This document shows, in pieces, positions 11,600-35,613 of a stretch of 64,000 bases of DNA; the stretch's first letter is position 1; each line of letters begins with the position of its first letter. Source of the DNA: Schmidtea polychroa (lineage: Eukaryota); the NCBI GenBank assembly GCA_044892525.1, contig CM097888.1, positions 68,386,001 to 68,450,000 on the forward strand, in the 5' to 3' direction. The notes under the pieces are model-generated. The model was not told the DNA's origin. It saw nothing but the letters and a program-made list of their open reading frames with translations, and ran no database searches. A program made the translations under genes and the position numbers.

Positions 11600-11741
11600 T
11601 CAACTCTGATTGGTCCGCACAAATAAGAATTTGATATATATACAACTACCAAAAACATTAAATTTACTGTTAACCCCGAGCATTTCATAGGTAAGAAAGA
11701 ATGTTTACTGTTTTGACTGTTAACCCCGAGCATTTCATAGG
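11600..11741 (+). promoter_or_regulatory. Candidate LTR promoter region with 26-bp direct repeat
   Basis: Reverse CCAAT (gattgg) near 11610, TATA-like gatatatatac near 11633, repeat actgttaaccccgagcatttcatagg at 11666-11691 and 11716-11741, donor-like ag|gtaaga at 11691. Function is inferred. Confidence 0.4.
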
Positions 11742-13789: not shown

Positions 13790-14578
13790 ATGTTCTCCAT
13801 TTCATTAGTATTATTTATAGCAAGCATGCTACCAACCACTAAATCAGCATTACGGCCGTGCTTCTCGTGCGCGGATAAAAATACGGTGATAAAGGACCTA
13901 CAAACTCAGATTGGACGTTACAAGAGGAAGATAGACGAGCTGGAAGGGACATGGTTTAGTCCCGCTCGGATGAAAGAGATCCAAAAGAAGCTCGATCGTA
14001 GCGAGCATTGCCGGGACGCGCTAATATCTGAGAGCCGTGCCCAAAGAAGTCTAATCAGAGAACAATCCGAGGCACTGCATAAGGTTTACGTGCAGGCGGC
14101 TACAACCCGAAAAATCGTGCAGATTCCCATCCGAGAGGCCGATGACATCTTTCCGCCTCATCACAACCTTTCCTCGAATCCATCTCCACCGTTCAAGAGA
14201 CCGTGCCGAGACTGCGTCGAAACCGAATGGTCCCCCAAGCGTCCAGATGTTGTCATCACGGGTACCAGTAAGCCCCCCACTGCTAGTCCATCTGTATCAG
14301 TCACCCTTCTGCAAGTGGCATCTTCAAGCAAACCCAAGCGCAAACAACTCTCTCGTGCAGAGCGCAAGAAGAGACAGCGCGAGCGCGCTACTGCAAAGCC
14401 AAACATCCCATCAATAGAGGACTCAACCAACGGTGGCAACTCTCACGTGTCCATCGACCTAACAACGGGACCCTCAGCGCGAATCATATCAGCCGCTGGC
14501 GTAAGGTGGGAAGAGAACGCTTCCGAGTTTTTCAACCTCGACGAATTATTCGCCGACACTGAATGGGAGAAACAATAA
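13790..14578 (+). CDS. LTR-encoded 262-aa protein of unknown function (coiled coil, two CxxC, basic NLS-like tract, acidic-aromatic tail)
   Basis: Long ORF in an otherwise AT-rich LTR, identical in both LTRs. Alternative start ATG 13826 follows tttatag; AATAAA overlaps the stop and recurs at 14702. Confidence 0.65.
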   Translation: MFSISLVLFIASMLPTTKSALRPCFSCADKNTVIKDLQTQIGRYKRKIDELEGTWFSPARMKEIQKKLDRSEHCRDALISESRAQRSLIREQSEALHKVYVQAATTRKIVQIPIREADDIFPPHHNLSSNPSPPFKRPCRDCVETEWSPKRPDVVITGTSKPPTASPSVSVTLLQVASSSKPKRKQLSRAERKKRQRERATAKPNIPSIEDSTNGGNSHVSIDLTTGPSARIISAAGVRWEENASEFFNLDELFADTEWEKQ

Positions 14579-15119
14579 AACCCCAGTGGCGGTCAGGATG
14601 AGGAACAAGGATCCGATCTATGTTGATTATGATGTTTTCTCTTCTTTCGACAAACATTAGTAAAATGTACAGCTGAATCCTTGTGTCATAACGTTGAAAT
14701 TAATAAATCTTGTTGTCTTACACGTTTTCGTTCATGAATAATTAGACTTTAATTAAGTGGGTTGAGTAGAGAACCCGCAAGATCTAGTGAGAATTTCCCA
14801 ATTTGCATTCAGCGAATCCTGATAGGTGGTTGTGTAAGGAAATGGACGTAAGCCCTTCTATCGGCAGTCGTGAATGGGAAGTCGAGGCCTCAGCAAGGAG
14901 TAGTTTTAAGGCAGAAGCTCACCTGCTTGCTGGCGTCTCGCCTGCATAGTGCAGTACCAACGTGAAGTGATTCACGGGCACTATGTTGGAAGAAAGTTAT
15001 GTGGGGTTTCACTCCAGGTTGACAAATCGGTGGCACCTTTTATTCGAGATGGACAATCAACCCTTAGACCCGCCAACATGGTAGAATGGTCAGCCGAGGT
15101 GTAACCCCAACATGATTTT

Positions 15120-15137
15120 TGGGGGCTCAGCCGGGAT
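15120..15137 (+). promoter_or_regulatory. Primer-binding site, tRNA-Pro-like
   Basis: TGGGGGCTCAGCCGGGAT matches the known tRNA-Pro PBS TGGGGGCTCGTCCGGGAT at 16/18; it starts 7 nt after the LTR end. Confidence 0.75.
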
Positions 15138-15454
15138 CTACAGTCGATCGAAACTTCTATTAACGAATGCGAAATTCACCGGGATTTTCATACAAAATTA
15201 AAGGGATTTATCACATCGATTTTCTATTTTCAACCGACCATTGCTTGACGAATGCAAAGTGACTATTGATTATTAAATTATATTAGGAACTAAGTAGAGA
15301 AAATCAAAATGTAGATAATAGAAAAATTAAGGATATATATAAATAAATGAGATAAAGTAGTCAAATTAAATAATTAACAATGGTTAAAGAAACCAATTAA
15401 CGAATTAACTATTAATTTACTACATATTATTAAAACATTACTTTTCCAACAGCT

Positions 15455-15940
15455 ATGACAGAATTCGCGAACCAAATGCAACAACTGCTCAAGTTTATCG
15501 ATATAGAAAACGACTCCCTAACAACACTGACGCATAAAAGAGAAAAAATCAACGCGATATTACTGCAAGCAATCGGACAAACACCAGTCGTACCTAATCA
15601 TATGATATTAGCCACAGGCCTAAGTCGCCCAGATGGAAAAATAAACCCCGAAACCGTATATCAGTGGTATCAAGAGAGATTGAACCACCCAACATTAAAT
15701 CTAGATTATCAGCGTCTAAAAGACTCACTAAATACAATACCAGATGCAATCGAACAAAAAATACAGGAAAAAGTTAACCAATTACGAACTTGTATAGCCT
15801 GCAAACTCCGTCCTATTCGCGTATTACTCTTGCCGTGTGGACACCTCAGTCACTGTGAAGAGTGTGTAAAAGACCTAAAAAGATGCACGATGTGCAAATA
15901 TGAAATAAAAGAGACCCATATGGTCTATTACGGCGAATGA
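15455..15940 (+). CDS. IAP-type C-terminal RING-finger protein (putative E3 ligase), no BIR domain seen
   Basis: CIAC-x9-LPCGH-x3-CEEC-x6-CTMC followed by IKETHMVYY at the C-terminus, the IAP/XIAP-like RING-HC pattern. Acceptor-like ttttccaacag ends 2 nt before the ATG. Confidence 0.85.
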   Translation: MTEFANQMQQLLKFIDIENDSLTTLTHKREKINAILLQAIGQTPVVPNHMILATGLSRPDGKINPETVYQWYQERLNHPTLNLDYQRLKDSLNTIPDAIEQKIQEKVNQLRTCIACKLRPIRVLLLPCGHLSHCEECVKDLKRCTMCKYEIKETHMVYYGE

Positions 15941-16517
15941 AACGGCCGGCGATGTAACAGCAAGTATACGAGGTTTGAACAAGAATGCATGAAATTGTTG
16001 AAGTAACACGTACTGTTAATGATTCAATCTTTATGTTTATGATAAATAAATTCGTCTTTAAAAAGTTTTGATGATTAGGACTAATAAAATTTGCATGCCG
16101 AATGAATATTTGCGTGTTTGTTTTGTTTTATTCCTTTTTTTTTTGGAATCAAATGAAGAGAGGGTTGAATAACGTGGAATTAGTCCCAATATAGACTGCA
16201 GGGGTACAAACCGAGCCACCTTCGGGCGGTACGTCTTATTGCAAGAACCCGTTGGGAGGGGATAACTGATCAACCCAAGTAAGAAGCGTAGGGCGGGGTA
16301 CCATCGCATATGATGAGAAGTTTTTGCGACATGACTGATCACCATGCCAAGGTAGAAATGGATCATCGCGATCGTCGTGCGTTTTGAGCAAGGGGGGAAA
16401 GGGGAAACACTCCCAAGCGGTAAAGATTAAGTCGACAAATTAAAAGTAGACAGAGAAAATGGTAAACTAGAGTAAAAGAAGAAAAGAGAAATAGAAGCAT
16501 GCAGAGCGAGGAATATT

Positions 16518-17071
16518 GAAGATTGAGCTGTTGAATAGTGCCAGCCAGTCGTAAGATCGAGTTGTTGAATAGTCCAACCGATCAGAAGGAAGAAGATTGA
16601 GCTGTTGAATAGTGCCAGCCAGTCGTAAGGTCGAGTTGTGAAAAGTCCAACCGATCAGGAAGGAGGAAGATTGAGCTGTTGAATAGTGCCAGCCAGTCGT
16701 AAGGTCGAGTTGTGAAAAGTCCAACCGATCAGGAAGGAGGAAGATTGAGCTGTTGAATAATGCCAGCCAGTCGTAAGGTCGAGTTGTGAAAAATCCAACC
16801 GATCAGAAAGAAGAAGATTGAGCTGTTGAATAGTGCCAGCCAGTCGTAAGGTCGAGTTGTGAAAAGTCCAACCGATCAGGAAGGAGGAAGATTGAGCTGT
16901 TGAATAGTGCCAGCCAGTCGTAAGGTCGAGTTGTTGAATAGTCCAACCGATCAGAAGGAAGAAGATTGAGCTGTTGAATAGTGCTAGCCAGTCGTAAGAT
17001 CGAGTTGTTGAATAGTCTAACCGATCAGAAGGAAGAAGATTGAGCTGTTGAATAGTGCCAGCCAGTCGTAA
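16518..17071 (+). repeat. Tandem array of ~7.5 x 74-bp units in the retroelement leader
   Basis: Units begin gaagattgagctgttgaatagt at 16518, 16592, 16666, 16740, 16813, 16887, 16961 and 17035 (partial). Each unit contains two related sub-repeats sharing G(C/T)TGTTGAATAGT. Confidence 0.95.
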
Positions 17072-18380
17072 AGGCCTAGAAAAGCGAGAGATAGCAGTTA
17101 AGCTACAATGAGATAATATTTAAATTACTAGTGATATGGAATATTAAAGCTAGCTAGAACAAATTGAATGTAATTTTGAAAATTCGAGTTTAGAGAGGAA
17201 ATAAACGAGCTCGTGGAAAAGAAAATAAGATTATAATGAAAAAGGAAAGGGAAGAAGGAAACGAATTAAAGAGATAATAGAAAATAAAGAATAGATGAAA
17301 TGATGATAATGAGTAAAGAGGAAAGTAACTAACTAATTAAAGGGATCCCAGTGAAGTAGAGAAACTCTACGGAATTTTTTTTTTTGGGTAAACCGGGAAA
17401 ATGTATTTTTACCGGTTCCAGAGTAGAACCGAGTGGGATAATAGTAAACACGAAAAGTAAAACAGCGACAACAGCGCAAAGGAATAAGAAAACGAAGGGG
17501 GGTAATAAGCAGAGACTGACAACGACCTATTTTTACTATAATTGATAACGAATAGATAATTATTACGACTTTATAGATAATTGTTACTACCCCATATAGA
17601 TAATTTAAAATCGACGGAAAATACGGGCTGATGGGATATTATAACCCGCAGAAAGGATTTCACAAAAAGATAGGGGAAGCACAAACAGAAACCTAAAAGG
17701 CGTCTGTTTTTGAATGTTGTAGAAAGAATGATGAAGTCGTGTAAGCAAATGCAACACGAGATCATTTTTTCATTTTAGATATCAAGCCAATCCAGCCAAC
17801 CAAGACAATCCAGAACCTGCACAAAAGGAATTCGAAGAAATCGACAATCAACCAAGGATAAATCCATTCAGAACCCGCACCGAGAGACACAGCAACCGGA
17901 AGACTCCAGAACGGAAGAAGTATTAGCAGCCATCTGCCAAGGATTAGTAAATCTCCTCAGGATCTCAGTAGCAGATTCATACAGAATATTTATCGAAGGA
18001 AACACAATCAGAACCGAACGCGTCCAATTCAATAGCCGCTAATTACCAAGAAGCGTAAGAAAGGAATCACGGATAAACCCAATCTTAGATCTTCTAGTAA
18101 GCCAGGAGACGTATTATTTTCAGGAGACGAATTACAACAACTCAAAAGAGGACGATCCATTAAACATCAAAGAGGAATATCACAAGGATCCAGAAGAACC
18201 AATCAAGTACCCATATTTGACCAAGAAAATCTCGGATATACCCCTAGTCGATCTCGAAGTAGAGAAAGTCTGTCCGATATCACTAATAGTTTAGCAACGT
18301 CAACCGAGGAGTTATCAGCCCAAAGTTTAGTCACATCGTTAGACAATTTAAAAGAAACAGACGAACCTAGAACACCAATC

Positions 18381-19286
18381 ATGACGAATGTCGTAAAAAC
18401 CGACGAGTATAAAGAGAAGTTCAGAGGAGAACCGTTCAACGGAAACGCAAACAAGCTAGCATCGTTCATAACTAATTTTGAAGTTTATATCACTGTGTGT
18501 GGATGGACACCCGAAGCAATTAGTAAAAGGATGCCGTTGTTTTTGTGCGATAGTGCATTAGAGGTATATTTAGAAGCTAAAGAGAGAGACACGAAATTAG
18601 AAAAGTGGGAAGATATTAAAACATTCCTGAAGAAAACCTTCGGAGCCAGTAAGCCAATCAACCAGGCGTTGGGCGAACTAGCAAATAGGAAACAAAGAGC
18701 AAACGAATCGATAACATTATATGCCAGTGAATTGCGGAGATTAGCGAAGAAAGCAATGAATGGAAAATTACCCGAAGAAAATCTGATCGGTTATTTCATA
18801 GAGGGATTACGCCGAGAAGAAGTAAGAGCCTCAGTAGGTTGTCAAATGTGCAAAACATTAGAGGAAGCCATAGATTGGGCTACAAGATGCGAGCTCCACC
18901 TTCCAGCTCAAATGAATATTATGCAAGAGGAGGGAAGGATAGCGACAGCAATAGCGAAAGCGGATAACGGAGATAACAACAATCAAGAACCGAAAATGAA
19001 TCAATTTATACCAGGAGCGCACCAAATTTTCAAACCACCACAAGGACGATCAAACGGGAATAATGGTAATCGTAACAACCCGAATAATGAGAACAATTTC
19101 AATAATCGGCGAAATATGAACGATAACAAGCAGTGCCGAACATGCGGTAAACCAGGACACTGGGACAGAGATTGTTATAGAAATTCAAATTGTAATCGTT
19201 GCGGACGGCGTGGACATACCGAAAATGTATGCCAATTGCGAGGCTGTTTTAACTGTGGTCAGCCAGGTCACATCTCCAGAGATTGC
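18381..19286 (+). other. Gag capsid-like domain and three CCHC zinc knuckles
   Basis: Retrotransposon-gag pattern (WEDIKTFLKKTF, RKQRANESITLYASELRRLA, FIEGL); knuckles CRTCGKPGHWDRDC, CNRCGRRGHTENVC and CFNCGQPGHISRDC at 19134-19286. Confidence 0.92.
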
Positions 19287-22200
19287 CGAGAAAGGGGCCA
19301 ACAACAACGACCACCACAGCGAAATAATAATTATATAGCGAATCCGCAACGACAAAGTAACCCTAACGAAGGAAAACAAATGAACGTTATGCAGGAAATT
19401 TCGCAGATGAAACAGATGATGCAACAAATGATGAGACCAAGACAAGAATCAGCACCACAACAAACCCAGAATATACGTATGATGAGGAGTACCGAAAATC
19501 TCAACAATTATGAAGTGCATCAACATGTACAAGAATGGCAAAGGCTACAGGCCGAGGAAGAGAGGATAAAACAAGAACGCAACCAACAACGACAAGAACA
19601 ACCATTGCGAATAAATATGATGAAGTTAGTAAAAGACATGAAGAGCCAGTATTGCTACAATTACGGGAAAAGCCCAAGGGTAGTACCCATGACTGAACCA
19701 GAAAAGGTAAAAGAAATAACAACGGAAATGAAAACAGAGAATTCAACCACGATTTTAAAAGGAAACCAGAGAATTCAGAAAATATTCTGGAAAAAGATAA
19801 AAGATAAAATCGAAAAAGAACATAATAAAGCGAAAGCCGAGACAGAAGATGAAAATAACAAGAGCAAGGAACAAACCAGTCAACTAAACCACCAAATGCT
19901 ACAGGAATTAGAATCAGAAGAAACAACGATATTCGAAAGAAAGAAACTAAAGAGAGTACCAAGGATGAGAAACTTGCAAATCAATATGATGAAAAGGACA
20001 AAAGATGTAGCATCGTCAGACGAGGAAGAAGACTATGTAAGTAGTTTGGGTGGAGAAATACTACAGCTGAATGAAATAAGCGAACCTCCAAAAGGGGAAA
20101 TCAAAGAGGAAGAAGGCGAAAGCGAGATAACCAGCGAAAGTGAAGACGAGGATATCGAAATAAAGTTGAGAAAAGGGAAGGAGGAAGCGATAAAACAAGT
20201 AGCGGAAATACTCCCAGTAGTAGTGAGGAACCAAGAGTTCATTGACGTAATACCATTCAGGCGATTCGTGCAAAAAGTGATGAAATTGGAAAGAAACGAG
20301 AAAGATTTAATACCAAACGAGGAAAAATCAATTATAAAAAATTATATGGAAAAAATGAAGCAGGCCGATACCACGCGGTATGTAATAAAAATCGGAACGA
20401 GTAGAGGACTTGAAAGAATGTGGATAAAAAATACAGTCACCGACGAACTTTTCGATTGGATACGAGAGCATTTGGGAAGTTCGAGAAAGAAAGAATATCT
20501 GTATCAATACCAAGGAGAACAGATCAAACCAGATATGCACTTAGTAGATGCACTAATATGGCCAGGAGAAACGCAAATACTGAAGTTGCATAAAGAAAAA
20601 CAACCAGCCAACCTTTACGATTGGGCTAAAGATGCCAAGGCAGAATATGATTTTAATATCAAATTGAAATTAGAACAAATAAAACAATGTACTCTGAGAC
20701 GAAACCTGGATAAGCTGATCAAACAAATTCAAGAACAAGTAGAAGACAACTGGGATTTACTCATCACCAGACGAGCCCCAGCCATGTACGAACTAATGAG
20801 CCGGTTGCGAGATACAGAAATGCTCCGAATGAGTGATTGGAGAACCATAAATTTGATCCACAAATATGGAAGGTTAAAAGAAACCCAGCCACAGAGGTTG
20901 GAAATAACCATATGGTTACCGAACGAAGAAAAACGACGAATAAAAATGAGCAATCAGAGTACAGTAGATGACTTGGTATCAAAAATAAACCAAGAGATAA
21001 CGGAAAAGGTACGTAGCGAAAGTAGTGATGGTATGGTGGATGATGTAGTCATGATGTACGATAAGATAATATTACGAGCGGAGGACGACACCTCGTTAAG
21101 CGAAATGGGTATGTGGGACAATCACCAGATAATCAGGATAGTACCAATGGATGAATTTCGAACAAGAGATGTAACCTATCAAAAAGAAATACGAGACCGG
21201 ATGAAAACGTTATATCAAAAATCTACGGAAATAATTAAAATCCACCAACAATGGTTAAAAGAAAAAGAACTACAAGGAAAAATCACGAAATTAAGCACCA
21301 GATCCTGCAGACGAACCCCATGGGAAAGAGTGTGGAATGCAGAAAGTAAGGAATGGGAAATCCGGAAAGGAACCTTCGTGGAAACAGACATTGGTGAGAC
21401 AGAAAGTGAATCGGAGGAAGAAGAAGAGGAACCTCCAAAATATGAAGAGGAAGCAAGGGAACAGACATCAGATGACGAAGGCGAGACGGATGTCACATCA
21501 GAAAGCGAAAATGAAGCGAGACATATTCATGCAATGAGGAAAAAGGAACGTGAATATGCTGATATGGACGGCGAGGAAGCGACGGAAGCAAGAGAACGAG
21601 AAGAGAAAGAAAGATATAAACAATTAGGCGATATCTTAGCAATGGGAGCGAAAAATCAAAGACGCCAAGTAGTAGCGTTGGCTAACATCATCTTAAAGAC
21701 ATCAGAGGACATCCACAATCTGAGAGGAATGGCAAAGGCAATAGAGGAATACCGGCAATATAATGAATGGTATCCAGAACAGCTAGAACAAATTATTCGA
21801 AAATGGAGAAATCAGGAATGGGCACAAGACACCCAGGAGAGGTATCACATCCGAATCAAGTATCCAGACAAGAGCATCGAGGAACTAGAGGTGCATCCAA
21901 CAACAAAAATTAGAGAATTAAAAAAGAAATTAGCATATGAAACTCCATTCCATCTGCAACTGTTCGGAAAATCACTAGACGATAATGCAGACGTCGGGAT
22001 AACCCCCATGAGATTGGAAGAGACAAATGTATTAACAATGGCAGAAACGTTGGGAAAACCGTTAAAAAGGAAAAGTAAAATTATTAAACCAACACAAGGC
22101 AGTTTGAGTACTCCAAGTCCGAACAAAGCACCAAGTAAATCTAATGAAACTGAAGAAGTTGAAGAGATAATCCTGGAAGATAGTGACGATGAACCAGGAG

Positions 22201-25200
22201 AAAGATCACCGCTATTAGTGAGATGGCCGACAGGAGCCGAAATGTGGACTAATAACCAGCCATCAACGAGTTATCAACAACCAACGAAACTGAACATCGA
22301 AGAAATCATCGACAATACTACGGAAACCGAAACGGATGAACAATTCCAGAAGCAAAGAGAACCAACGAAAGTAACACCAGAAAGTCAAACCGACAAAATA
22401 ATAGACGAATGGAATGAGTGGCTAAGAAATAACGATAGCTCATTACCCAGAACGGATAACGAAAGAAATCCGAATTACGAAAATACCAGAGAAGCAGGAA
22501 CGATGATGGAAAAACGGGCAAAAGGAAGACCCAAGAAACAAGGAGAAAAGTCTGAGTTCAAAACCAAAGAACAATTAAAGCAAGAACAAGGGCAAGTTCG
22601 ATTAGAAAAATTGGATAAAATAGTATGGGATCTAAAGGAAGCCCAACCAACGATCGAAAGAGGAGAAAAATGGATACGAGAATTGTTAAAAGATATGTTA
22701 ATAATAACAAACCCACAACTTAGACGTTTGTGGCAACGGAAAGTAGCCAGTACGGAAGCTAGACAATTATGGCACACCATTTCGGGGATAATCCCAAAGT
22801 TAATCAAAGAGAAAACGAAAACCACCAAAACGGATTGGGACGAAACAAAGAGAGTGATTGAGCAGCTCACGACAAATGCAAATGATGACGAGCATCACCT
22901 AGTGGTAATCACTTATTTGATGTATAATTTGATGGGACTAGCTGCGAGGAAAATACCAAATAAACAGTTTGCAAATCATGTAGAAATGACCGTTTCAATC
23001 ATAGAGAATACTATTGAACCACACATTATTCGTGCAGGAGGATGGAAAAGACTGATACAAGCGCCACGGAAAAATGAGCAAGAAAGGTCGATGCAAGTTA
23101 GATTGAAAAAACTATTAAATGAACTAGAATGGGAACTACCGATGAAAGATCCCGCAAGCAGAAAAGCATCAATAAATTCGTTAATGATGACTATGATGAT
23201 ATGGATGTTGTGCACAAGTGGAGCAACAGGTTTCACCATCTACGATTGTGATAACATGATAATGAGAGATAAATACTCATTGAGAGACATAGAAGAATGC
23301 AGACAAGCCTCACCCAACAAATTGGACATCGTGAGAACAAAAGTTACTTACCATGTATATCAAGAATCAGATTTCATCAGAACGCAAGCAAGGGAATGCG
23401 TAGTATCAAAAAAGGTACTCGCATATTACTGTGGACAATATTCGTATTCGACTCTTATACTACCCGGTCTGGATAAAGAAATCGTATCAATACAACGAGA
23501 GGATTGTAAAGAGCTATTTAGAACCGGAGCGCTAAAAATGCATAACGGAGTGACAATTCACGGACAAACTGGAATGATTAAAACCGAAAGTGTTTACGTA
23601 TCCGGAAAAGTAAAATCATCAGATGGGTCATGTAACGGAGGTACGTATACGATCCGAGGCGAGGTAATATCGGGAGTTGTAGTGATCGAGTCTTACACGG
23701 TCGAATTAAAAGAATACGAAGCGCAATTTGACGCAAATAATTACCAAATGAAGACCAACCCAACGTGTAGAGCTACAGAAAACGTATGCAGGACAGGAGT
23801 ATCAACTATAATCTATGAAGCTAATACCCAAAAATGCCGACTCCAACTGTTAAAAAGTGCTTTGTTCAATGAAGTAAAAGGAGAAATATATGAGAACGAG
23901 AACGACGAGGATGGAAACGACAGAGTGAGAATGCGAAATGGAAAACCAATGCCACCATCTCCCAGAGAAAAGAGACTTTCAACGCAGAAGACACCAACAG
24001 CATTAATCACAGACGATCCAGATCTAGGTATGAGATTTATCAAAGAGAAAGAAACCACCAAATGTGACAGTATAGTATATAAAACCAATTACGCAGGTAT
24101 CTATATGTCGAGACAAATAATCGATAGAGCAGTGGGAAAGATAGCAACGGAGGACGTAAAACTATACTTATATGCAAATAATAAAATGGATTTTCTATTT
24201 CATCGCGGACAAACGACCTTGCAAAAAGTATATTACGATCTAATACAAAACGATTGTTCATTGAATAAAGAAATATTGAAAACAAAGCTAGCTATTGCGA
24301 TAACGCACCCAGATAACACGATGCCATCACTCCCATTTCCAGATGGACACTTTGGTAGAATGGTAGGAGAAGTGATGTACACATACCAGTGTACCAAGAC
24401 GTATGCACGAATGCCAGAAAAATCCATACTACCCGAAAAGAGATGTGCAAATGAATTAGAAATCCGTTATAAAGGACAAAATCGATTCGTCCAACCAGTC
24501 ACTAGAATTATGAATCCAGTGGGTTTCTACCCAAATCTCTTTAACTGTTCTAATGCATACGGACCTTTATATGAAAGGCCCGATGGGAAATGGATGATGT
24601 TACCGGGAAAAACCATATCCGAGGAGCCCAAGAAATTTGGATTAATAGAACTCGCCACAGAGCTGGATTTCAAACCTATAGACGTGTCAAACGGTGGTAT
24701 GTATTCCCCAGAAGATCTAGAAACAGCACGACTTAACGTACTCTTCCCAGCCAGACGAGAATCCATTTTGTCTAATATGGTAACAATAACTGGGGGCACA
24801 AACTATCAATCAGGCCCGAATTACGAGCTGCTATTATCGCCAGACCATTTTCAACAAGCTACGTCAAACATGATGAAAGCAATGTGGGGAAGATTCTTAG
24901 TTTTTGGAAAAATGATGGCCGGGATATTAGGGATCATACTCATAATTCAGATAGTCAGAGTAATACTAACACAAATGTTAGCTTGTTTCGATATATACAA
25001 GCGGGAAAAGAAAGTTAATTGGAAAATGATAGTAGGCTTCTTACCATTTTTAGCTAAGACCATGGTATTACATGGCCACTCAAAAGACATTCATCGGATA
25101 AAGCGATTGATTAAAATATTAACAAAGATTAAAGGAACCGACGAGGAAGTAGGCAGACGATTCCGGAAAGTAATGTACGATGAAGCAACAAGACGACAAT

Positions 25201-28200
25201 TGAAAAAGAATAAGCCAAAATTCTTGGACCGATTTAGAAGCCAATCATCTAACAGCGATAGTGACGACGATGATAACGGGAACGATAAATGTCTTTATCC
25301 AAACAGAAACCCAAACGAAAAACCAATGGAAACGGCACCATATTGGGAAAAGGAAAAGACAAACACCTGGATCGCCAATGGAAGCTATATACCACCGGAT
25401 ATCGTGGGACCACAAACAGCTTTGACCATGACACAAAATATGTATCCGCAATTACCGAGTCAACCCGGTATGCATTATATGCCAACACGACGTACCAAAA
25501 GTGTAGATCAAGCAGAGGACGTAAGAACAATAGCAGCGATGAGTTTACCTGGAGGTCCAGCAGTAACAGTTATGATTCAAATCAATGGTAAAGAAACCAA
25601 TGCTATGATAGACACCGGAGCTAATGTATCAGCGATAGCGATTAATCAAATCCCCAGTAAACACTGGAAGGATATCGAATCAACAACAATTCACATCATA
25701 GCATGTAGTAAAGAAACAGTGGACGTGGTCGGAAGATGGTGGACTACATTGAGATACCAGGACAACGAAATTGAAACGTATTTGGCAGTAATACCAAAAC
25801 TTAGCGTACCATGCATAATCGGAACGGATTTGATGCCAGAATTGTTAAAAGAAATCGTAATTGACTTAACAACCATGTGTTTAAAAGACAAAACCGGTAG
25901 AATATGCAAAATGAATGCAGTCATCAGATGTCCAGAAAAAATAATAGTACCAGCAAAATCACAGATGATTTGTCAGATAAAAGTGGATACGGGTATGGAA
26001 GGAGAAGTTATCTTTGAACCAAGCAAGTCATTTGAAAAGCGACGAGAATTACCACTCGCAAGAGAAATAATCACAATAAACCAAGAAGGAGTGATACCGC
26101 TCAACATCACGAATTTCGAAGAGGAAGACAAAATCATTTATGAGAACGAAAAATTGGGAAGATTGACCCCAATGATGGACATAGAATTACCGAAAGTGAC
26201 CAACGAGATGATCAAAGATGATGAATTATGGACAATAGATAGTATGTTGTTGACGAATGACGAAAAGAAAAAATTGCACCGATTGTTGGTAGAATATAAA
26301 GATATATTCGCCATCTCAGATTTAGACTTGGGTACATGTGATGTTACCTTACATGCAATACCACTCATAGACGAAACCCCAATTGCATTGAGACCATACA
26401 AGCTAGCAGAAATGCAGAAAGAAATAGCCGAAACAGAAGTACAAAAGATGCTAGACGCAAAAGTAATCGAACCAAGTTGCTCACCCTGGCAATTCCCAGT
26501 GGTCATGGTAAAAAAGAAAGATGGCACCCAACGATTCTGTATCGATTATCGGAAGTTAAACGCAGTGACCAAGAGAGATACCTACCCATTGCCGGACATC
26601 AATGAGATGTTATTGATGTTGCAAGGGGCAGCATATTTTACTTCTTTAGATCTAAAAAGTGGATACTGGCAGATTAAAGTCAAAGATGAGGACAAAGAGA
26701 AAACAGCTTTTACGTTGGGACGAGATCTATATCAATTCAGGAAAATGCCATTTGGACTGACTAACGCACCAGCATCATTTCAACGGTGTATGAACTTTGT
26801 CACCCATGGAATCAAACAATGTATGGTATATATTGATGATTTACTAATCTATTCAGCGACATTTGAACAACATCTAGAAGATATCCGAAACGTATTTATT
26901 AGATTAAGACAGTGGAAACTCAAACTCAAACCATCAAAATGCGATTGGGCAAAGGAAAAAGTCACGTTTTTAGGACACATAGTGTCAGCTAAAGGAAAGG
27001 AGCCAGATCCAAGAAACATTGAGAAAATAAAAACATGTCCAGCACCGAAAACTGTCACCCAAGTTCAGGAATTTCTAGGATTATGCGGATACTATCGCAA
27101 ATTTATCAAAAATTATGCAGGAATTGCAAAACCAATCCAGGAATTAGTAAAGAAGGACATTTCGTTCTTATGGGGGAAGGAACAACAAGAGGCGTTTGAA
27201 ACGCTGAGAGACAAACTAATCGAAGCACCTATCCTCGTACACCCAGATTTTAAGAAGCCATTTCTATTGGCAACGGATGCAAGCGGGTACGCGGCAGGCG
27301 CGATTCTGGGACAATTGGACGATGAGGGAAAAGAGAGAGTAATCGGGTATTACAGTCGAACATTCAAAAAGCACGAAAAGAACTATTCGGTAACAGAACG
27401 AGAAGCATTGGCTATAATACAAGCTATCAAACACTTCCGATATTTACTATGGGGACATGAGATATGCATAACCACAGACCATCAACCATTAGTGTGGTTA
27501 GGGCAACATAAAGAAGCGTCCAGTAGACTGATGAGATGGGCCATGCAATTGCAAGAATACTCCCCATTTATAAAATTTAAAGCGGGAAGAGCAAATGCCA
27601 ACGCCGATTGTATGTCAAGATTTATTTTCCCAGATTTGGTGGATTCAGAAATGCAACGCATATGCTTAATAGTAGCGGAAGATTTGGATTTCTGTCAATT
27701 GCGAAAGGACCAACAAGAGGACGCGGAATTAAAACAAATTATCGATTATATAAAAACCGGACAGACAGATGTATATGCGAAAGACCAAAAATTAAAAGAA
27801 CATATGGATAAACACCGACACCGATATATTATAGAGAAAGATTGGTTGCTGATAATGGATGGGGAAAAACGATTAATGTGTATACCGGAAAACCGACGAA
27901 AAGAGTTACTAACGCAATATCACGATGGGAGATTGGGAGGACATATGTCATCAAAAAAGACGTTAGCAAGAATGAAACAGAAATATTTTTGGCCTACGTT
28001 AACGGAAGATGTAACCGAATGGGTAAAAAATTGTCTAACTTGTGCAACCAGGAAGAATACGGGATCGAAATGGAAAGCACCTTTAACGCCAATGCCAGTA
28101 CCAATAGAACCAATGACAATGATATCCATGGACGTAGTTGGTCCACTACCAGAGTCAGATAAAGGAAACGTTTACATTCTGGTGATCACAGACTTTCTTA

Positions 28201-31200
28201 CGAAATTCCCAGAAGCATTCGCGATGCCAGACCAAAAAGCTAAAACAATCGCAAAAATTTTGGTAGAAGAGATATGTTGCCGATATGGAACACCAAAACA
28301 AATCTTAACCGATCAGGGAACAAATTTTATGAGTGAGATAATGAGCGAAGTAACAAATTACTTCAAAATAGCAAAACTAAGAACATCTCCATACCACCCT
28401 CAAACCAATGGGATGACGGAAAGATTTAATGGAACACTTATACAAATGTTATCAAACTACGTTGACCGTCACCAACGAGATTGGGACGAATATATAAACC
28501 TATGTCTTATGGCGTACAGAATGTCGATTCACGCATCAACGAAAATGAGCCCATTCAAATTAATGTACGGAAGAGAATGTAATATGCCAATGGACCTGGA
28601 ATACCAACCACCGATATCGCAGTATATGGAGATCGATGATTATGTTACGAAATTCAAGGAAAGAATGCAAGAAATTTGGGAAACTGCGGGATTAAATATC
28701 AAGTTCTACCAGGAAAGTTATAAAGATTTACACGATCGAAAGAAAAACGTGAAGCAACATACGTTCCAAACAGGTGATTGGGTAATGATAGAAACCCCGG
28801 AATTAATTCCAGGAACCACAAAAAAGTTACAACGCAACGGAAAAGGACCATATGAGATCTTATTCGTAGGCGAAACTAATGTAAGAGTGAAATTGGTAAA
28901 TAACCCCTTTACCAGACCAATATACGTAAACGTGGCACGATGCAAATCAATTCCAAAAACAGCCACTAGTCAACCAGAAGGCCGTACATTAACCACACGT
29001 TCGCAAACCTACCGAATGAACATGATGCAACAACTCGCAGAACCGATCACTGGACGATTAGGTATCCAACCTTCAGAAGCGGAAAAGATTGTAAAAGAGG
29101 TAAAAATTAAAATACCTGGATGGGCAAAAGATCGATTAGATTTCGAAATATTAGGAGGATTATTGACGATGATCGAGAACTATGCAAATAGAGAAAGGAC
29201 ACACCCATTATTGCGAGTAGTCAAAAGCCAATGGCCAATATTATTTACAATAACAGATCATTACGGAGACACACCATTACACAAACTCATGAAAGTAGGT
29301 AACAACGAGCAAATACTAGAAACAATAGAAGCATTTCACGACTGCAAGCGATCAACAGAACAAACAAACAACCAAGGTTACACACCATTAATGATAGCCG
29401 CAAACAGAGGCAAAACAAAAGACATTATAACCGCATTACTCGATACCGGATCGAAAATAACTACACAAGACCACGAGCGGAAAAACGCTCTACATCATGC
29501 TATCAGAGGGAGAAGTACCGAGGCGTTCACGTCATTGATGGAACTACTATCATATGAGGACAATCGGGAAGTCGGAAACATGTATGATGGATTGCTAACA
29601 GCGATCAAAGAAAAACTGACGACAATTACCGGAATATTAATTACATGGAGAAATCCGATTCGAAACGATTATATGATCAACGTAAACGAAGCGTTCACGA
29701 GAGGAGAGAACACGCTGATGAGAGAAGCTATGAAAGGACATCATTTATTCGAAATCCCGAATCAATTACTAGAACGAGGGATAAAATTCACAAATCACAA
29801 AGACGAACAGTTAACAAAAAAGCGAATCGACACATTCGAAAAATCACTATTCCAATTTACTAACCAAGTACGACATAAATATTGGGAAACAGTAAGTGTG
29901 TCATATATGATGGACACGATGAATAACATCCGCGAGAATTACATGGATATTATCCAAATACTTACAGCAGAGGAACGAATCAATAATCCAAACGGAAAGA
30001 AAACGAAAATAAGGTATGAGAAATCCAGGGAATCAAAGTCAACAACGAACCAAACGGTCACAAACAACGTCATCGAAACCAAATCAATGAGTATAGATCA
30101 AGAGGCAATAATACGCAAAGCAAAAGAAGTGTTCTTTGAGGAAATGCTAGAGCTGCCAGACGAAATAATATTGTCCAAAATAATAAAAGCCGTACACACA
30201 TACGCAAGAGATCAAACCACGGGTTTAGATATCGGGAAAATCAAAACCTTCTTGCCTCGAGCATTTACGATGGTAACGAAGGATTCCCGAACACCCCTAC
30301 AACAAGCAATACTAGCTGCAAAAGAGAATAGAGCAATAACGATCATGAGAATCCTTGGGGAGATGGGCGAGGAAACCAACACGAAAAATGAACAAGGTGA
30401 AACCGCCATGATGTATGCAGCTATAACGAAAATACACCCAAAAACACTCCACATCCTACATCAATCAGGATCGAAACTAGACGAAAGGTCCAATGAAGGA
30501 AATTCCACCTTGGACTGGGCAACCATACAGCCAAACTTAGAAATGATCAGATTTATTTGCAAAAATGCGACAGAAGAAGAAGTTGAAAATATGTGCAAAA
30601 ACACATCTCAGTTTCAATGGAATACGGTACGGAAAAATCTAGAAGCAATGAAATTATTATTAACCTGGAGAGTACCACCAAATAATAAATATGCGATAAA
30701 TGTAAACGAATTCTACGAAAACGGAGAAAATGCGATGGTAAAGAATACCCTAACTAAGGGGGGGACGCCTAAAATTATTTTAATAGTATTAAATAGAGAA
30801 GACCTAAAATTCACGCAAAATCAGAACGAGCAACAACGAATTGGGAAACATCGTCGTATGCAATTGAGAGAGTTAGTTAAAGAATGGAATAGAAAGAGAC
30901 ATGCTGCAACGGGTAGAAAAGAGTTTGAATTCGAAGCAAAATTAGCAAGAAACAGAGTGCTAACAGCATATCGCAGATTATTGAACGATATAAATGTCGA
31001 GGACGACATTTTAAATGACAGCGAGGGAGATAAACACGATGACAATAACGGAAAAGACCGAAAGGAGGATAAAGAGAAAAGAGAACCGGAGGAGGGTAAA
31101 CCAGAAAACAAGGATTCGGATACGAAAAGAGAGGGAAACAGCCCGAGAACCAAGACCAAAGAGGAGGAAAAATCGAATAATGGAAAACAGAGGGTATGCC

Positions 31201-32234
31201 TACCTTTCACTAACAAAGAAATAGAGACAAATATGATATTAATGATAATTATGCTTACCATGATAGAGTTAGTAACAGCTCAGGGAGGGACGAGAACGAT
31301 AAAAGAAACCAAAGAAGCGGAGAATCAAGATAGCAAAGAGGATGAACTAAAACAAGAAAAGAGAAAGCAAGCACAAGAGCAGCAGTGGGATTTAAAGGAA
31401 GAATGGGACTTAAAGGAAAAGTGCATACTAGGAAGATGCATGTCTAGAGCGTATCAGAAATTAGTACTGATAAATGAGGACACAGAACCAATAACAGAAG
31501 TAAGAATACAAGAAGCATACCGAAATCGAGACGGGAAGAGAATAACGAACGTCAAAGGAAAAGAGGTACACCTAGGAAAAGGTGGTGAAGTAGTAATAAC
31601 GCAGATCCAACCTAGAAAAGAGCACAAAGTCTGTATTTCAAGATTAGGACCAGGTGAGAGATGCCATCAATATGTGACGCAGCAGCAGCCGCCGAAAGAA
31701 TACACGGTTTGTATCTGGAGGAATGAATCAAAAAGAGAATGCCGACGATACCCGGGGAAAAGAGGAAAGAAAAGAAAAAACCACGACGAAAAGAACGAAG
31801 GAGGAAAGCACAAGAAAACTGGTGAGGAAGCTCAGGACAACTATGTTTCGGAGGAAGAGATGGAAAAAATACAAAAGATGGCAAAGGAGGGTATGAACGA
31901 GGAAATAGCAAGAATACGGGAAATGATGAAAGGAAATGGCAAAAGAGGAAACGAGAAAAGTACAGAAGCGATATCAACATTAACAAACAAGGAAAAACCA
32001 GAGAGTATAAGCGTGAAGCAGATGATGTGGATCAGTGGGATAATAATAACAGGGGCATTCCTAATCATAACGGGGGGAACAATAAAAATAATTAAAGATA
32101 AACGACATCGCGGAGAACTAGAGATGACTCGAATCAGAAATTTCCAACATCGAGTGAAACGACCAAGTGATATCAAACAAGAACAGTGGGTGGAGGCCTG
32201 GAACGCTCAGCGCCCTCCAAACTCACGTATATAG
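18381..32234 (+). CDS. 4,617-aa single-frame polyprotein: Gag-ZnK3-Ubl3-Bcl2-like-Env-PR-RT-RH-IN-ANK-membrane protein
   Basis: Uninterrupted ORF with all catalytic motifs intact: DTG (25611), YIDD (26829), RNase H TDAS, and integrase zinc-binding plus DVVGP/DQG/ERFN. Confidence 0.97.
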   Translation: MTNVVKTDEYKEKFRGEPFNGNANKLASFITNFEVYITVCGWTPEAISKRMPLFLCDSALEVYLEAKERDTKLEKWEDIKTFLKKTFGASKPINQALGELANRKQRANESITLYASELRRLAKKAMNGKLPEENLIGYFIEGLRREEVRASVGCQMCKTLEEAIDWATRCELHLPAQMNIMQEEGRIATAIAKADNGDNNNQEPKMNQFIPGAHQIFKPPQGRSNGNNGNRNNPNNENNFNNRRNMNDNKQCRTCGKPGHWDRDCYRNSNCNRCGRRGHTENVCQLRGCFNCGQPGHISRDCRERGQQQRPPQRNNNYIANPQRQSNPNEGKQMNVMQEISQMKQMMQQMMRPRQESAPQQTQNIRMMRSTENLNNYEVHQHVQEWQRLQAEEERIKQERNQQRQEQPLRINMMKLVKDMKSQYCYNYGKSPRVVPMTEPEKVKEITTEMKTENSTTILKGNQRIQKIFWKKIKDKIEKEHNKAKAETEDENNKSKEQTSQLNHQMLQELESEETTIFERKKLKRVPRMRNLQINMMKRTKDVASSDEEEDYVSSLGGEILQLNEISEPPKGEIKEEEGESEITSESEDEDIEIKLRKGKEEAIKQVAEILPVVVRNQEFIDVIPFRRFVQKVMKLERNEKDLIPNEEKSIIKNYMEKMKQADTTRYVIKIGTSRGLERMWIKNTVTDELFDWIREHLGSSRKKEYLYQYQGEQIKPDMHLVDALIWPGETQILKLHKEKQPANLYDWAKDAKAEYDFNIKLKLEQIKQCTLRRNLDKLIKQIQEQVEDNWDLLITRRAPAMYELMSRLRDTEMLRMSDWRTINLIHKYGRLKETQPQRLEITIWLPNEEKRRIKMSNQSTVDDLVSKINQEITEKVRSESSDGMVDDVVMMYDKIILRAEDDTSLSEMGMWDNHQIIRIVPMDEFRTRDVTYQKEIRDRMKTLYQKSTEIIKIHQQWLKEKELQGKITKLSTRSCRRTPWERVWNAESKEWEIRKGTFVETDIGETESESEEEEEEPPKYEEEAREQTSDDEGETDVTSESENEARHIHAMRKKEREYADMDGEEATEAREREEKERYKQLGDILAMGAKNQRRQVVALANIILKTSEDIHNLRGMAKAIEEYRQYNEWYPEQLEQIIRKWRNQEWAQDTQERYHIRIKYPDKSIEELEVHPTTKIRELKKKLAYETPFHLQLFGKSLDDNADVGITPMRLEETNVLTMAETLGKPLKRKSKIIKPTQGSLSTPSPNKAPSKSNETEEVEEIILEDSDDEPGERSPLLVRWPTGAEMWTNNQPSTSYQQPTKLNIEEIIDNTTETETDEQFQKQREPTKVTPESQTDKIIDEWNEWLRNNDSSLPRTDNERNPNYENTREAGTMMEKRAKGRPKKQGEKSEFKTKEQLKQEQGQVRLEKLDKIVWDLKEAQPTIERGEKWIRELLKDMLIITNPQLRRLWQRKVASTEARQLWHTISGIIPKLIKEKTKTTKTDWDETKRVIEQLTTNANDDEHHLVVITYLMYNLMGLAARKIPNKQFANHVEMTVSIIENTIEPHIIRAGGWKRLIQAPRKNEQERSMQVRLKKLLNELEWELPMKDPASRKASINSLMMTMMIWMLCTSGATGFTIYDCDNMIMRDKYSLRDIEECRQASPNKLDIVRTKVTYHVYQESDFIRTQARECVVSKKVLAYYCGQYSYSTLILPGLDKEIVSIQREDCKELFRTGALKMHNGVTIHGQTGMIKTESVYVSGKVKSSDGSCNGGTYTIRGEVISGVVVIESYTVELKEYEAQFDANNYQMKTNPTCRATENVCRTGVSTIIYEANTQKCRLQLLKSALFNEVKGEIYENENDEDGNDRVRMRNGKPMPPSPREKRLSTQKTPTALITDDPDLGMRFIKEKETTKCDSIVYKTNYAGIYMSRQIIDRAVGKIATEDVKLYLYANNKMDFLFHRGQTTLQKVYYDLIQNDCSLNKEILKTKLAIAITHPDNTMPSLPFPDGHFGRMVGEVMYTYQCTKTYARMPEKSILPEKRCANELEIRYKGQNRFVQPVTRIMNPVGFYPNLFNCSNAYGPLYERPDGKWMMLPGKTISEEPKKFGLIELATELDFKPIDVSNGGMYSPEDLETARLNVLFPARRESILSNMVTITGGTNYQSGPNYELLLSPDHFQQATSNMMKAMWGRFLVFGKMMAGILGIILIIQIVRVILTQMLACFDIYKREKKVNWKMIVGFLPFLAKTMVLHGHSKDIHRIKRLIKILTKIKGTDEEVGRRFRKVMYDEATRRQLKKNKPKFLDRFRSQSSNSDSDDDDNGNDKCLYPNRNPNEKPMETAPYWEKEKTNTWIANGSYIPPDIVGPQTALTMTQNMYPQLPSQPGMHYMPTRRTKSVDQAEDVRTIAAMSLPGGPAVTVMIQINGKETNAMIDTGANVSAIAINQIPSKHWKDIESTTIHIIACSKETVDVVGRWWTTLRYQDNEIETYLAVIPKLSVPCIIGTDLMPELLKEIVIDLTTMCLKDKTGRICKMNAVIRCPEKIIVPAKSQMICQIKVDTGMEGEVIFEPSKSFEKRRELPLAREIITINQEGVIPLNITNFEEEDKIIYENEKLGRLTPMMDIELPKVTNEMIKDDELWTIDSMLLTNDEKKKLHRLLVEYKDIFAISDLDLGTCDVTLHAIPLIDETPIALRPYKLAEMQKEIAETEVQKMLDAKVIEPSCSPWQFPVVMVKKKDGTQRFCIDYRKLNAVTKRDTYPLPDINEMLLMLQGAAYFTSLDLKSGYWQIKVKDEDKEKTAFTLGRDLYQFRKMPFGLTNAPASFQRCMNFVTHGIKQCMVYIDDLLIYSATFEQHLEDIRNVFIRLRQWKLKLKPSKCDWAKEKVTFLGHIVSAKGKEPDPRNIEKIKTCPAPKTVTQVQEFLGLCGYYRKFIKNYAGIAKPIQELVKKDISFLWGKEQQEAFETLRDKLIEAPILVHPDFKKPFLLATDASGYAAGAILGQLDDEGKERVIGYYSRTFKKHEKNYSVTEREALAIIQAIKHFRYLLWGHEICITTDHQPLVWLGQHKEASSRLMRWAMQLQEYSPFIKFKAGRANANADCMSRFIFPDLVDSEMQRICLIVAEDLDFCQLRKDQQEDAELKQIIDYIKTGQTDVYAKDQKLKEHMDKHRHRYIIEKDWLLIMDGEKRLMCIPENRRKELLTQYHDGRLGGHMSSKKTLARMKQKYFWPTLTEDVTEWVKNCLTCATRKNTGSKWKAPLTPMPVPIEPMTMISMDVVGPLPESDKGNVYILVITDFLTKFPEAFAMPDQKAKTIAKILVEEICCRYGTPKQILTDQGTNFMSEIMSEVTNYFKIAKLRTSPYHPQTNGMTERFNGTLIQMLSNYVDRHQRDWDEYINLCLMAYRMSIHASTKMSPFKLMYGRECNMPMDLEYQPPISQYMEIDDYVTKFKERMQEIWETAGLNIKFYQESYKDLHDRKKNVKQHTFQTGDWVMIETPELIPGTTKKLQRNGKGPYEILFVGETNVRVKLVNNPFTRPIYVNVARCKSIPKTATSQPEGRTLTTRSQTYRMNMMQQLAEPITGRLGIQPSEAEKIVKEVKIKIPGWAKDRLDFEILGGLLTMIENYANRERTHPLLRVVKSQWPILFTITDHYGDTPLHKLMKVGNNEQILETIEAFHDCKRSTEQTNNQGYTPLMIAANRGKTKDIITALLDTGSKITTQDHERKNALHHAIRGRSTEAFTSLMELLSYEDNREVGNMYDGLLTAIKEKLTTITGILITWRNPIRNDYMINVNEAFTRGENTLMREAMKGHHLFEIPNQLLERGIKFTNHKDEQLTKKRIDTFEKSLFQFTNQVRHKYWETVSVSYMMDTMNNIRENYMDIIQILTAEERINNPNGKKTKIRYEKSRESKSTTNQTVTNNVIETKSMSIDQEAIIRKAKEVFFEEMLELPDEIILSKIIKAVHTYARDQTTGLDIGKIKTFLPRAFTMVTKDSRTPLQQAILAAKENRAITIMRILGEMGEETNTKNEQGETAMMYAAITKIHPKTLHILHQSGSKLDERSNEGNSTLDWATIQPNLEMIRFICKNATEEEVENMCKNTSQFQWNTVRKNLEAMKLLLTWRVPPNNKYAINVNEFYENGENAMVKNTLTKGGTPKIILIVLNREDLKFTQNQNEQQRIGKHRRMQLRELVKEWNRKRHAATGRKEFEFEAKLARNRVLTAYRRLLNDINVEDDILNDSEGDKHDDNNGKDRKEDKEKREPEEGKPENKDSDTKREGNSPRTKTKEEEKSNNGKQRVCLPFTNKEIETNMILMIIMLTMIELVTAQGGTRTIKETKEAENQDSKEDELKQEKRKQAQEQQWDLKEEWDLKEKCILGRCMSRAYQKLVLINEDTEPITEVRIQEAYRNRDGKRITNVKGKEVHLGKGGEVVITQIQPRKEHKVCISRLGPGERCHQYVTQQQPPKEYTVCIWRNESKRECRRYPGKRGKKRKNHDEKNEGGKHKKTGEEAQDNYVSEEEMEKIQKMAKEGMNEEIARIREMMKGNGKRGNEKSTEAISTLTNKEKPESISVKQMMWISGIIITGAFLIITGGTIKIIKDKRHRGELEMTRIRNFQHRVKRPSDIKQEQWVEAWNAQRPPNSRI
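23181..25080 (+). other. Envelope glycoprotein (chuvirus/Monjiviricetes-like class III fusogen) embedded in the polyprotein
   Basis: Hydrophobic signal LMMTMMIWMLCTSGATG, then FTIYDC...YSLRDIEEC...YQESD...ECVV...YCGQYS. Cysteine-rich ~560-aa ectodomain, furin-type REKR (23964-23975), TM MMAGILGIILIIQIVRVIL from 24912. Confidence 0.72.
25560..28960 (+). other. Pol: aspartic protease, reverse transcriptase, RNase H, integrase (Ty3/Gypsy)
   Basis: AMIDTGA; SPWQFPVVMVKKKDGTQRFCIDYRKLN; LDLKSGYWQI; MPFGLTNAPASFQR; YIDD; LATDASG; TDHQPL; H-x6-H...CLTC; DVVGP; TDQGTNF; ERFN; GKGPYEI (GPY/F). Confidence 0.97.
29256..30760 (+). other. Two ankyrin-repeat blocks fused downstream of integrase
   Basis: GDTPLHKL, GYTPLMIAA, KNALHHAI; then RTPLQQAI, GETAMMYAA, GNSTLDWA. 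Both blocks end in a related motif (LITWRNP..Y.INVNE...GEN vs LLTWRVP..YAINVNE...GEN). Confidence 0.85.
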
Positions 32235-32754: not shown

Positions 32755-32839
32755 ACCAAACCTAGCTTAAAATGTAAATAATTGTAAATAAAATATCGAA
32801 CCTGTATCGATAAGAACTATTTGTACATATAATTATAGA

Positions 32840-34228
32840 ATGGATAAACGACAAAGAGAAGAGTTCAGAGAGATTGTCGAGCAAGTCCGAAAATCTACAA
32901 CGATCAGAATACACAAACATGTTATGTGCGGAATATGTGAAAAGTTGTTAAAGGAACCTCACCAAACGCAATGTGGATGCAGAGTATGTAAAGAATGTAT
33001 CAGTGAAGCAATAAAGAATAGACCACAGAGGTGCCCGGTGTGTAAAGAGACACTAATATCGAGTTTAGAAGACACTAACGAGGATAAAGCCGCAGTGAAA
33101 GACATGTTAAACACCAACCTGGGATGCAAAAATGCCCCATGCGAATGGAAAGGAGTAATATGGAAGGTAGTACAACATATGGGAGAATGTATGTACAGAA
33201 TTGGCCAGTGTGAAAGGTGCCATAAAACCATTCGAGCAAGCGAAGAAAAAGAGCATCAAAGGCAGTGTGAAGAGAGATTGGAAAGATGTGAACACTGTGG
33301 AGAAATAGATACGTGGATAAATCTCACCCTCAAACATCACAATGTCCAAGAGGAGAGAGTATGTGCAGAGTTCAGTGGGGAATGCCCAAACGGATGTAAC
33401 CAAGGGGAAATAATGAAGGTGGCACAGCATCTAAGGGAATGCGCAAAGAAAAGAATGACATGTGTACTAGGTAGATGGGGTTGTCAGAAACTACTACACC
33501 GAGGTGAGTTACCACATCATTTAGTAGAAAATGCTTCAACTCACGCAGAAATGTGGTCGACTGCGCTACAAGAAAGCGAAGAGAAAGTAAAACAAATGGA
33601 GATAGAGATAACATCGTTGAAAGTGTTAGTCAAAGAACTACTAGAAGAAAGGGAAGCGTTCGAAGAAGCCCGAGCAAACATAAAGATGCAAATAAACCGA
33701 ACAGAAATCAGTAATAATCAGGCCAAGGAGCTACATCAGAAAATACGGGAAATAAATCTAAATGAGATAACCCCAACAGCACCCTACATATGGAAAATAA
33801 CGGGAGTAAAAGAAAGAATACGAAAAGCAAAAACCGGAGAAGAGACAAGAATAACAAGTCCTACATTCCATTCTTGGAAAAATGGGTACAAAATGAAAAT
33901 GAAGGTATATCCCAACGGGGACGGAACCGGATTGGATACGCACTTTTCGATTTTCTTTCTGTTATGTAAAGGAGAATACGACGAAATATTAGAATGGCCG
34001 TTCCAGGCAAAAATCGATATTACTCTGATGAACAACCAAAGTATACATGAGCAAAGCTTCAAAACAACGGGGAATCAAATAGCTTACCAGAGGCCCCTCA
34101 ACGAAGAAGGATCAGCAACAGGAGCACCTACGTTCATCTCACAACAAAGAGTAGAAGATATGGCGAGAAATGATACCATATATATCAAGATGACCGTGAG
34201 GAAAGAGGAGAAGGGTAGAACGGAGTAA
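32840..34228 (+). CDS. Full-length intronless TRAF-family protein (RING, TRAF zinc fingers, coiled coil, MATH), TRAF2/3/5-like
   Basis: RING CGIC..LLKEPHQTQCGCRVCKEC..CPVC; zinc fingers CKNAPCEWKG...H..EC, CEHC, CPNGC; MATH YIWKI...SPTF...GYKMKMKVYPNGDGTGLDTHFSIFF..KGEYDEILEWPF...NDTIYIK. Confidence 0.95.
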   Translation: MDKRQREEFREIVEQVRKSTTIRIHKHVMCGICEKLLKEPHQTQCGCRVCKECISEAIKNRPQRCPVCKETLISSLEDTNEDKAAVKDMLNTNLGCKNAPCEWKGVIWKVVQHMGECMYRIGQCERCHKTIRASEEKEHQRQCEERLERCEHCGEIDTWINLTLKHHNVQEERVCAEFSGECPNGCNQGEIMKVAQHLRECAKKRMTCVLGRWGCQKLLHRGELPHHLVENASTHAEMWSTALQESEEKVKQMEIEITSLKVLVKELLEEREAFEEARANIKMQINRTEISNNQAKELHQKIREINLNEITPTAPYIWKITGVKERIRKAKTGEETRITSPTFHSWKNGYKMKMKVYPNGDGTGLDTHFSIFFLLCKGEYDEILEWPFQAKIDITLMNNQSIHEQSFKTTGNQIAYQRPLNEEGSATGAPTFISQQRVEDMARNDTIYIKMTVRKEEKGRTE

Positions 34229-34366
34229 CCAATCGAATAATGTTGTATATAATAATCTGTATATATCGGTGTATATAACCAATAAAATATTATATAATAA
34301 TAGTATGAAAACCCTAAATACGAAAACCCAAAAATGATGCGAAAATTTCCCAAGAAACAGTAAATA

Positions 34367-35557: not shown

Positions 35558-35613
35558 AAAGTATTGTAAAAGTATTCAAGGGACTGTAACCCAAACTATT
35601 AAATTTTATATCA

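Follow-up and report, generated by a model that had tools for sequence, protein, structure and literature searches.

A window of 64,000 nucleotides from the genome of Schmidtea polychroa (GCA_044892525.1, contig CM097888.1, positions 68,386,001 to 68,450,000) carries a young, giant Ty3/gypsy element of the Burro layout, the env of which is intact and selectively maintained. From homology and structure prediction, this env is expected to be a class III fusogen of the herpesvirus gB and chuvirus G type that likely lets particles of the element enter other cells, a reading given a probability of about 0.8.

The element is intact and spans 29,873 bp of the forward strand (window positions 11271-41143). 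It is bounded by a 5' LTR (11271-15112, +) and a 3' LTR (37302-41143, +), each of 3,842 bp with TG...CA ends, which differ at a single position, and it is flanked by a target-site duplication of 4 bp (11267-11270 before the 5' LTR and 41144-41147 after the 3' LTR). Since the LTRs are one base apart and the target-site duplication is present, the insertion is very recent. A primer-binding-site-like stretch read by eye (15120-15137, +) starts 7 nt past the 5' LTR and is assumed here to resemble a tRNA-Pro primer site; no clear polypurine tract was seen directly ahead of the 3' LTR (37270-37301), and no tRNA genes were found within the window. Each LTR contains an open frame of 264 codons (13784-14578 and 39815-40609, +) with no significant Pfam match, and in the 5' leader of the element a 74-bp unit is repeated about eight times in tandem (16492-17082). 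Two accessory ORFs were recognized by Pfam, one with a C-terminal RING finger (zf-C3HC4_3; 15434-15940, +; E 8e-11), in which no BIR was matched, and one TRAF-like, combining RING and MATH domains (32792-34228, +; E 2e-27). They are accompanied by two coiled-coil-like ORFs (34364-35476 and 35590-36366) and by a 222-aa ORF (36407-37075, +) in which an N-terminal signal-like segment and a TM-like segment were recognized by eye. Outside the element, Pfam matches point to an ARMT1-like ORF (8381-9160, +), a lactate/malate dehydrogenase-type ORF (47117-48382, -) and a transposase-like ORF with a Spin-doc zinc finger/DUF4371 (50243-52147, -).

The main ORF (18381-32234, +) is free of stops and encodes a polyprotein of 4,617 aa, ordered as gag, three CCHC knuckles, a Ubl-like and a Bcl-2-like region, Env, protease (PR), reverse transcriptase (RT), RNase H (RH), integrase (IN), ankyrin repeats and a C-terminal membrane module. 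This single frame and its Pfam domain order bear out the proposal of the earlier note that a Gypsy element carries env in frame, with gag ahead of it and the protease after it. The Gag capsid domain (Retrotrans_gag, aa 52-145; Pfam E 3e-9) and the CCHC knuckles (aa about 252-305; E 8e-10) occupy 18534-19295 (+), and Pfam located the protease at 25569-25844, the RT at 26508-26984, the RNase H at 27171-27560, the integrase at 27882-28580 and the ankyrin repeats at 29304-30554 (Ank_2, E 7e-17), all on the + strand. The PR-RT-RH-IN order, together with the Retrotrans_gag, RT_RNaseH_2 and Integrase_H2C2 families, places pol in Ty3/gypsy, and a BEL/Pao identity of the element was rejected on this domain order and these Pfam families. 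At the end of the ORF, hydropathy revealed a second signal-like stretch and a TM (31218-32096, +) enclosing a Cys-containing segment; this module had no significant Pfam match and is possibly a second type I membrane (surface) protein, a putative assignment.

Upstream of env, the Ubl-like region (Pfam ubiquitin, E 0.004) and the Bcl-2-like region (22830-23090, +; Pfam E 0.036), which lies directly before the env signal stretch and bears a BH2-like GGW motif, both fall below the Pfam cut-off. The Bcl-2 assignment is weak; one relative matches Bcl-xL at E 0.01, a single-sequence PDB search with the stretch gave no match, and a model of the region (pLDDT 53) aligned to Bcl-2 chains at Z 6.2-6.5, level with unrelated rows. 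Neither a BIR nor a dUTPase-like domain was matched by Pfam in the element, the published dUTPase-like call being HHpred-based. After env, two protease-like stretches are seen in the relatives P0001, P0002, P0003, P0004, P0008 and P0015 and one in the window element.

Env corresponds to aa 1596-2203 of the polyprotein and, as the earlier note had described, is composed of an internal signal-like stretch, a Cys-rich ectodomain and a TM helix, all upstream of the DTG motif of the protease (in IDTGA, aa 2410). The signal and TM were assigned by hydropathy and alignment. The signal-peptide-like stretch (aa 1596-1617; 23166-23231, +) has a modest h-region and ranks as the fourth most hydrophobic 11-mer of the ORF (2.05), with a cut predicted after G1617. 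In 12/12 retroelement relatives the conserved xDC start has an equivalent hydrophobic segment ahead of it, which in the stand-alone glycoproteins forms the N-terminus. The ectodomain (23232-24890, +), with a predicted class III/gB-type fold, opens with FTIYDC at aa 1618 (nt 23232), followed by YSLRDIEEC at aa 1632, and contains 14 Cys and one N-glycosylation sequon (N2055); all 14 Cys are kept in the 12 retroelement relatives, and 13 of them in 8/8 stand-alone glycoproteins. No part of the ORF is more hydrophobic than the TM helix (aa 2176-2203; 24906-24989, +; 2.53 for a 19-mer on the Kyte-Doolittle scale), which is followed by a predicted cytoplasmic tail and a linker to the protease (24990-25550, +), in which a conserved, moderately hydrophobic helix occupies 25014-25070. 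No joints skipping or splicing env were seen in four contig runs of uncertain type, such contigs being unable to show absence, strand or level.

The identification of this segment as a chuvirus-like glycoprotein, also put forward in the earlier note, is upheld by a match to Pfam PF24664 (Monjiviricetes_fusion) at E 8e-70, far beyond chance. Against 1.84 billion representatives, HMMER returned 983 env matches at E<=0.001, the best of which are polyproteins that share the env-protease(-RT) order, at 27-41% identity over the full length, followed by stand-alone glycoproteins of 620-880 aa at 21-28% identity, among them that of Tacheng tick virus 4 (E 4e-35). Word-indexed homolog searches with env gave no match, against the 983 found by HMMER, which reflects their limit of sensitivity. 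One polyprotein of the same clade (P0007, env-PR-RT-IN) is filed at NCBI as a protein of a Flavobacteriaceae MAG, probably because host sequence contaminated the bin.

The class III reading is supported by an AlphaFold2 model and by Foldseek, solved-chain and PDB-profile matches, which together point to gB and chuvirus G. The ectodomain, modelled as a monomer from a 124-row alignment, reached a mean pLDDT of 87.4 and shows long beta-hairpins and a central helix of 48 residues; judged by position in the model, aa 1685-1689 are a candidate hairpin tip of domain I. Foldseek against predicted viral structures placed chuvirus-like glycoproteins at the top, with TMq up to 0.68 and a best E of 1.7e-35, while herpes gB followed further down at E 3e-13. 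When the model was compared with 48,161 solved PDB chains by VIA-align, the top five were all herpes gB (Z 8.2-10.5; next row Z 6.1), the best being HSV-1 gB with Z 10.5 and 388 aligned positions over model residues 1-480 at an rmsd of 7.4; the rmsd of these gB matches is high, at 6.5-7.4 A for full-length rows. Profile searching against PDB sequences gave 38 rows, of which the first 34 are gB, though at weak scores (best E 0.007), and a single-sequence PDB search with env gave no match.

The earlier note had further read a canonical furin site in the ectodomain; the motif is present, but it is not conserved as a canonical site. REKR is found at aa 1862 (23964-23975, +) in a variable loop modelled at pLDDT 44-58 and missing from the stand-alone glycoproteins. 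It is a feature of a subfamily: among 43 in-family loci, 14 have REKR and 24 have KEKR, with one locus cut and four without env, a ratio that does not reflect genome frequency because the loci were hand-picked. R-X-K/R-R occurs in the ectodomain of none of 12 more distant relatives, and in 17.8% of 2,000 shuffled ectodomains, so that the motif by itself does not exceed chance. Obligatory canonical furin cleavage was therefore rejected, the site being unconserved in the family and in relatives. A convertase may still cleave there, since the dibasic KR is retained in all 38 complete in-family loci. In PMC13524379, the furin site of gB-type envs is likewise described as not always conserved.

Copies in the S. 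polychroa genome were collected with the N-terminal part of env (150 scored of 2,089 candidates) and, in a separate search, with RT, from which 20 of 150 matches were taken, chosen as missing from the env list. Among the scored env matches, 60/150 lie in the same stop-to-stop frame of 4,732 codons and 65/150 in frames of at least 4,700 codons. Even the RT-picked copies mostly retain env, in line with the expectation that the segment would be present in most copies of the family: it is full in 15, partial in one and missing from four, and these four have large deletions that also take gag and/or protease sequence. A second, shorter gag-env-pol family (L011-L040) is abundant in the same genome; its frames reach about 3,330 codons and its env is about 36% identical.

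Env is under purifying selection. The dN/dS of the ectodomain is 0.04-0.07 in 13/13 in-family copies at dS of 0.08-1.4, where values above 1.3 are near saturation; these pairs are non-independent, the window copy being in all of them and 10/13 coming from one sister subfamily. Values were saturated for two further loci in the set, which are members of another family. The tail and linker (aa 2232-2390) gave 0.02-0.08, and RT 0.00-0.02, so that env is less constrained than RT. These values are clean evidence that strong purifying selection continues to act on env in a family that is currently multiplying.

Flavivirus and alphavirus polyproteins provide an established model of processing to which the polyprotein of the window element may be likened. 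In such a scheme, the Gag, Ubl-like and Bcl-2-like portions would be made in the cytosol and stay there, and the internal signal at aa 1596-1617 would start translocation of Env into the ER, where signal peptidase would cut after G1617 and create the same mature start as in the stand-alone glycoproteins, which have it behind an ordinary N-terminal signal. The TM would then stop transfer and leave the tail (about 190 aa) and Pol back in the cytosol, and the protease of the element would release Gag and Pol. Cleavage by furin would probably be optional, and, barring splicing or turnover, Gag, Env and Pol would be expected at equal levels. Beyond this scheme, the GGW motif occurs in 6/15 sequences examined, 48-83 residues upstream of the point where the inspected region ends (approximately the first env Cys), and for this reason the cut signal peptide could be a Bcl-2-type tail anchor. 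A speculative and rather unlikely extension is that these elements are infectious planarian retroviruses built from one polyprotein, in which the cleaved env signal peptide would stay in the membrane, anchor the Bcl-2-like domain and tether the Gag precursor to the budding membrane, and in which the signal and TM module at the end of the ORF would be the receptor-binding partner of the gB-like fusogen. None of the papers listed by a literature search, judged by title or start of abstract, dealt with the signal-peptide/Bcl-2 anchor idea.

Purifying selection shows use, not the kind of use, and env might instead owe its retention to a role unrelated to particle entry, for example direct fusion between cells, attachment of Gag to membranes or a block to superinfection, in an element that copies itself inside the cell. 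The unconserved canonical furin site and the single sequon of env would fit such a role, and PMC13524379 calls the entry mechanism of gB-type errantiviruses unknown. The role is nevertheless considered improbable, given that the full ectodomain, with its 14 Cys, and the TM are kept across envs about 27-41% identical, and that no clean env-only deletion with intact gag-pol was found among the 20 RT-picked copies.

The origin of env was addressed with a quick IQ-TREE analysis of 45 rows, rooted at the midpoint and run without bootstrap, which included 31 of about 120 stand-alone matches and in which P0010 is labelled a retroelement without a gag or pol Pfam match. All 14 polyprotein-embedded envs form one long-stemmed group (SH-aLRT 100) apart from the 31 stand-alone proteins, the G of Tacheng tick virus 4 and one other row adjoining the retroelement group (SH-aLRT 94). 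Because the 14 embedded envs group on a long branch, a single old acquisition fits and a recent capture by the window family is disfavoured; the likely recipient was an ancestor of the polyprotein-env clade, which gained env in one ancient event. One stand-alone chuvirus-like protein carries DUF5641, which is presumably a BEL/Pao-linked domain; captures of chuvirus glycoproteins in mosquito BEL/Pao elements were reportedly described by Dezordi in 2020.

The earlier note had instead pictured a Gypsy lineage that captured a chuvirus glycoprotein independently and has an unusual gene order. The quick tree sustains the first idea in so far as the embedded envs look separate from the stand-alone chuvirus-like proteins; a capture specific to the window family was rejected, the env group being common to the 14 polyprotein-embedded envs. 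A recent, independent capture by this family with an unreported gene order is accordingly very unlikely: the nearest stand-alone proteins are indeed chuvirus-like and the Tacheng tick virus 4 pair adjoins the group, but env is 21-28% identical to stand-alone G against 27-47% to polyprotein envs, and both 'recent' and 'unreported' are contradicted, the order having already been published for Burro (PMC6431247) and for the Smed errantiviruses (PMC13524379). A passenger insertion or assembly chimera without function, in favour of which nothing was found, is refuted by the 60/150 copies that share the open frame, which also show that the env layout is not an assembly artefact, by a dN/dS of about 0.05 and by a contig of another run that crosses the Bcl-2-like/env junction (21834-23762).

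If the predicted fusion activity is true, the element would represent an endogenous retrovirus of planarians that is produced from one gag-env-pol polyprotein and equipped with a class III fusogen, and would bear on the spread of retroelements between somatic stem cells and on cell entry by gB-type errantiviruses.

Among known systems, the G of chuviruses (Jingchuvirales), e.g. Tacheng tick virus 4, has PF24664, 13 Cys, the predicted fold and the TM position in common with the window env. It is, however, a stand-alone gene with an N-terminal signal peptide, outside the polyprotein-env group, and stand-alone G proteins of the chuvirus type lack Cys1819 and the long loop that bears REKR. Herpesvirus gB provides the best solved-structure match and a profile match over the long central helix at 8-11% identity. 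According to PMC13524379, gB requires partner glycoproteins for entry; unlike gB, the window env has no such partner known.

The closest likeness in overall layout is to Burro/GYPSM1 of Schmidtea mediterranea and a Burro-like element from Dugesia tigrina, as described in 2019 in PMC6431247 with reference to Jurka 2007 and Grohme 2018. These elements are also about 30 kb with long LTRs, and combine one giant ORF1, gag with three CCHC knuckles, PR-RT-RH-IN, ankyrin repeats, MATH/TRAF cargo and Ubl-like and Bcl-2-like regions (weak in the window element), with env in frame between the Bcl-2-like region and the protease. ORF1 of the window element is 4,617 aa long, compared with 4,873 and 5,140 for Burro, and the element differs from the Burro descriptions in having MATH/TRAF in a separate downstream ORF and in lacking a BIR match by Pfam. 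For env itself, PMC6431247 reports an HHpred link to gypsy Env and mononegaviral fusion proteins, whereas a class III fold is predicted here. For a relative, BURRO1, transcription and repression by PIWI have been shown in S. mediterranea (PMC8532177).

In PMC13524379, HSV/gB-type GAG-ENV-POL errantiviruses are described from Nematoda, Bryozoa and Platyhelminthes, their env being linked to chuvirus glycoproteins, and six of them, Smed_errantivirus_1-6, come from S. mediterranea. The window element displays the features that define this type, namely a Ty3/gypsy pol, a gB-like, Cys-conserved ectodomain (predicted as a monomer), signal and TM flanks, and intact, multi-copy LTR elements. As portrayed there, Smed_errantivirus_1-6 have the same gene order, gB-type env and many intact copies as the window family, and their env is clearly homologous, its domain I-II being collinear with the window env, with the same Cys pattern by eye. 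On the sequences given in that paper, the window env is identical to none of the six; Smed_errantivirus_5, judged closest by eye, has no canonical furin motif in the loop matching the REKR loop, and the second S. polychroa family (L028) nearly matches Smed_errantivirus_2, again by eye. Judged from layout and these published descriptions, the window element is a new family with the published Burro layout, and the finding adds one more family to a layout already known.
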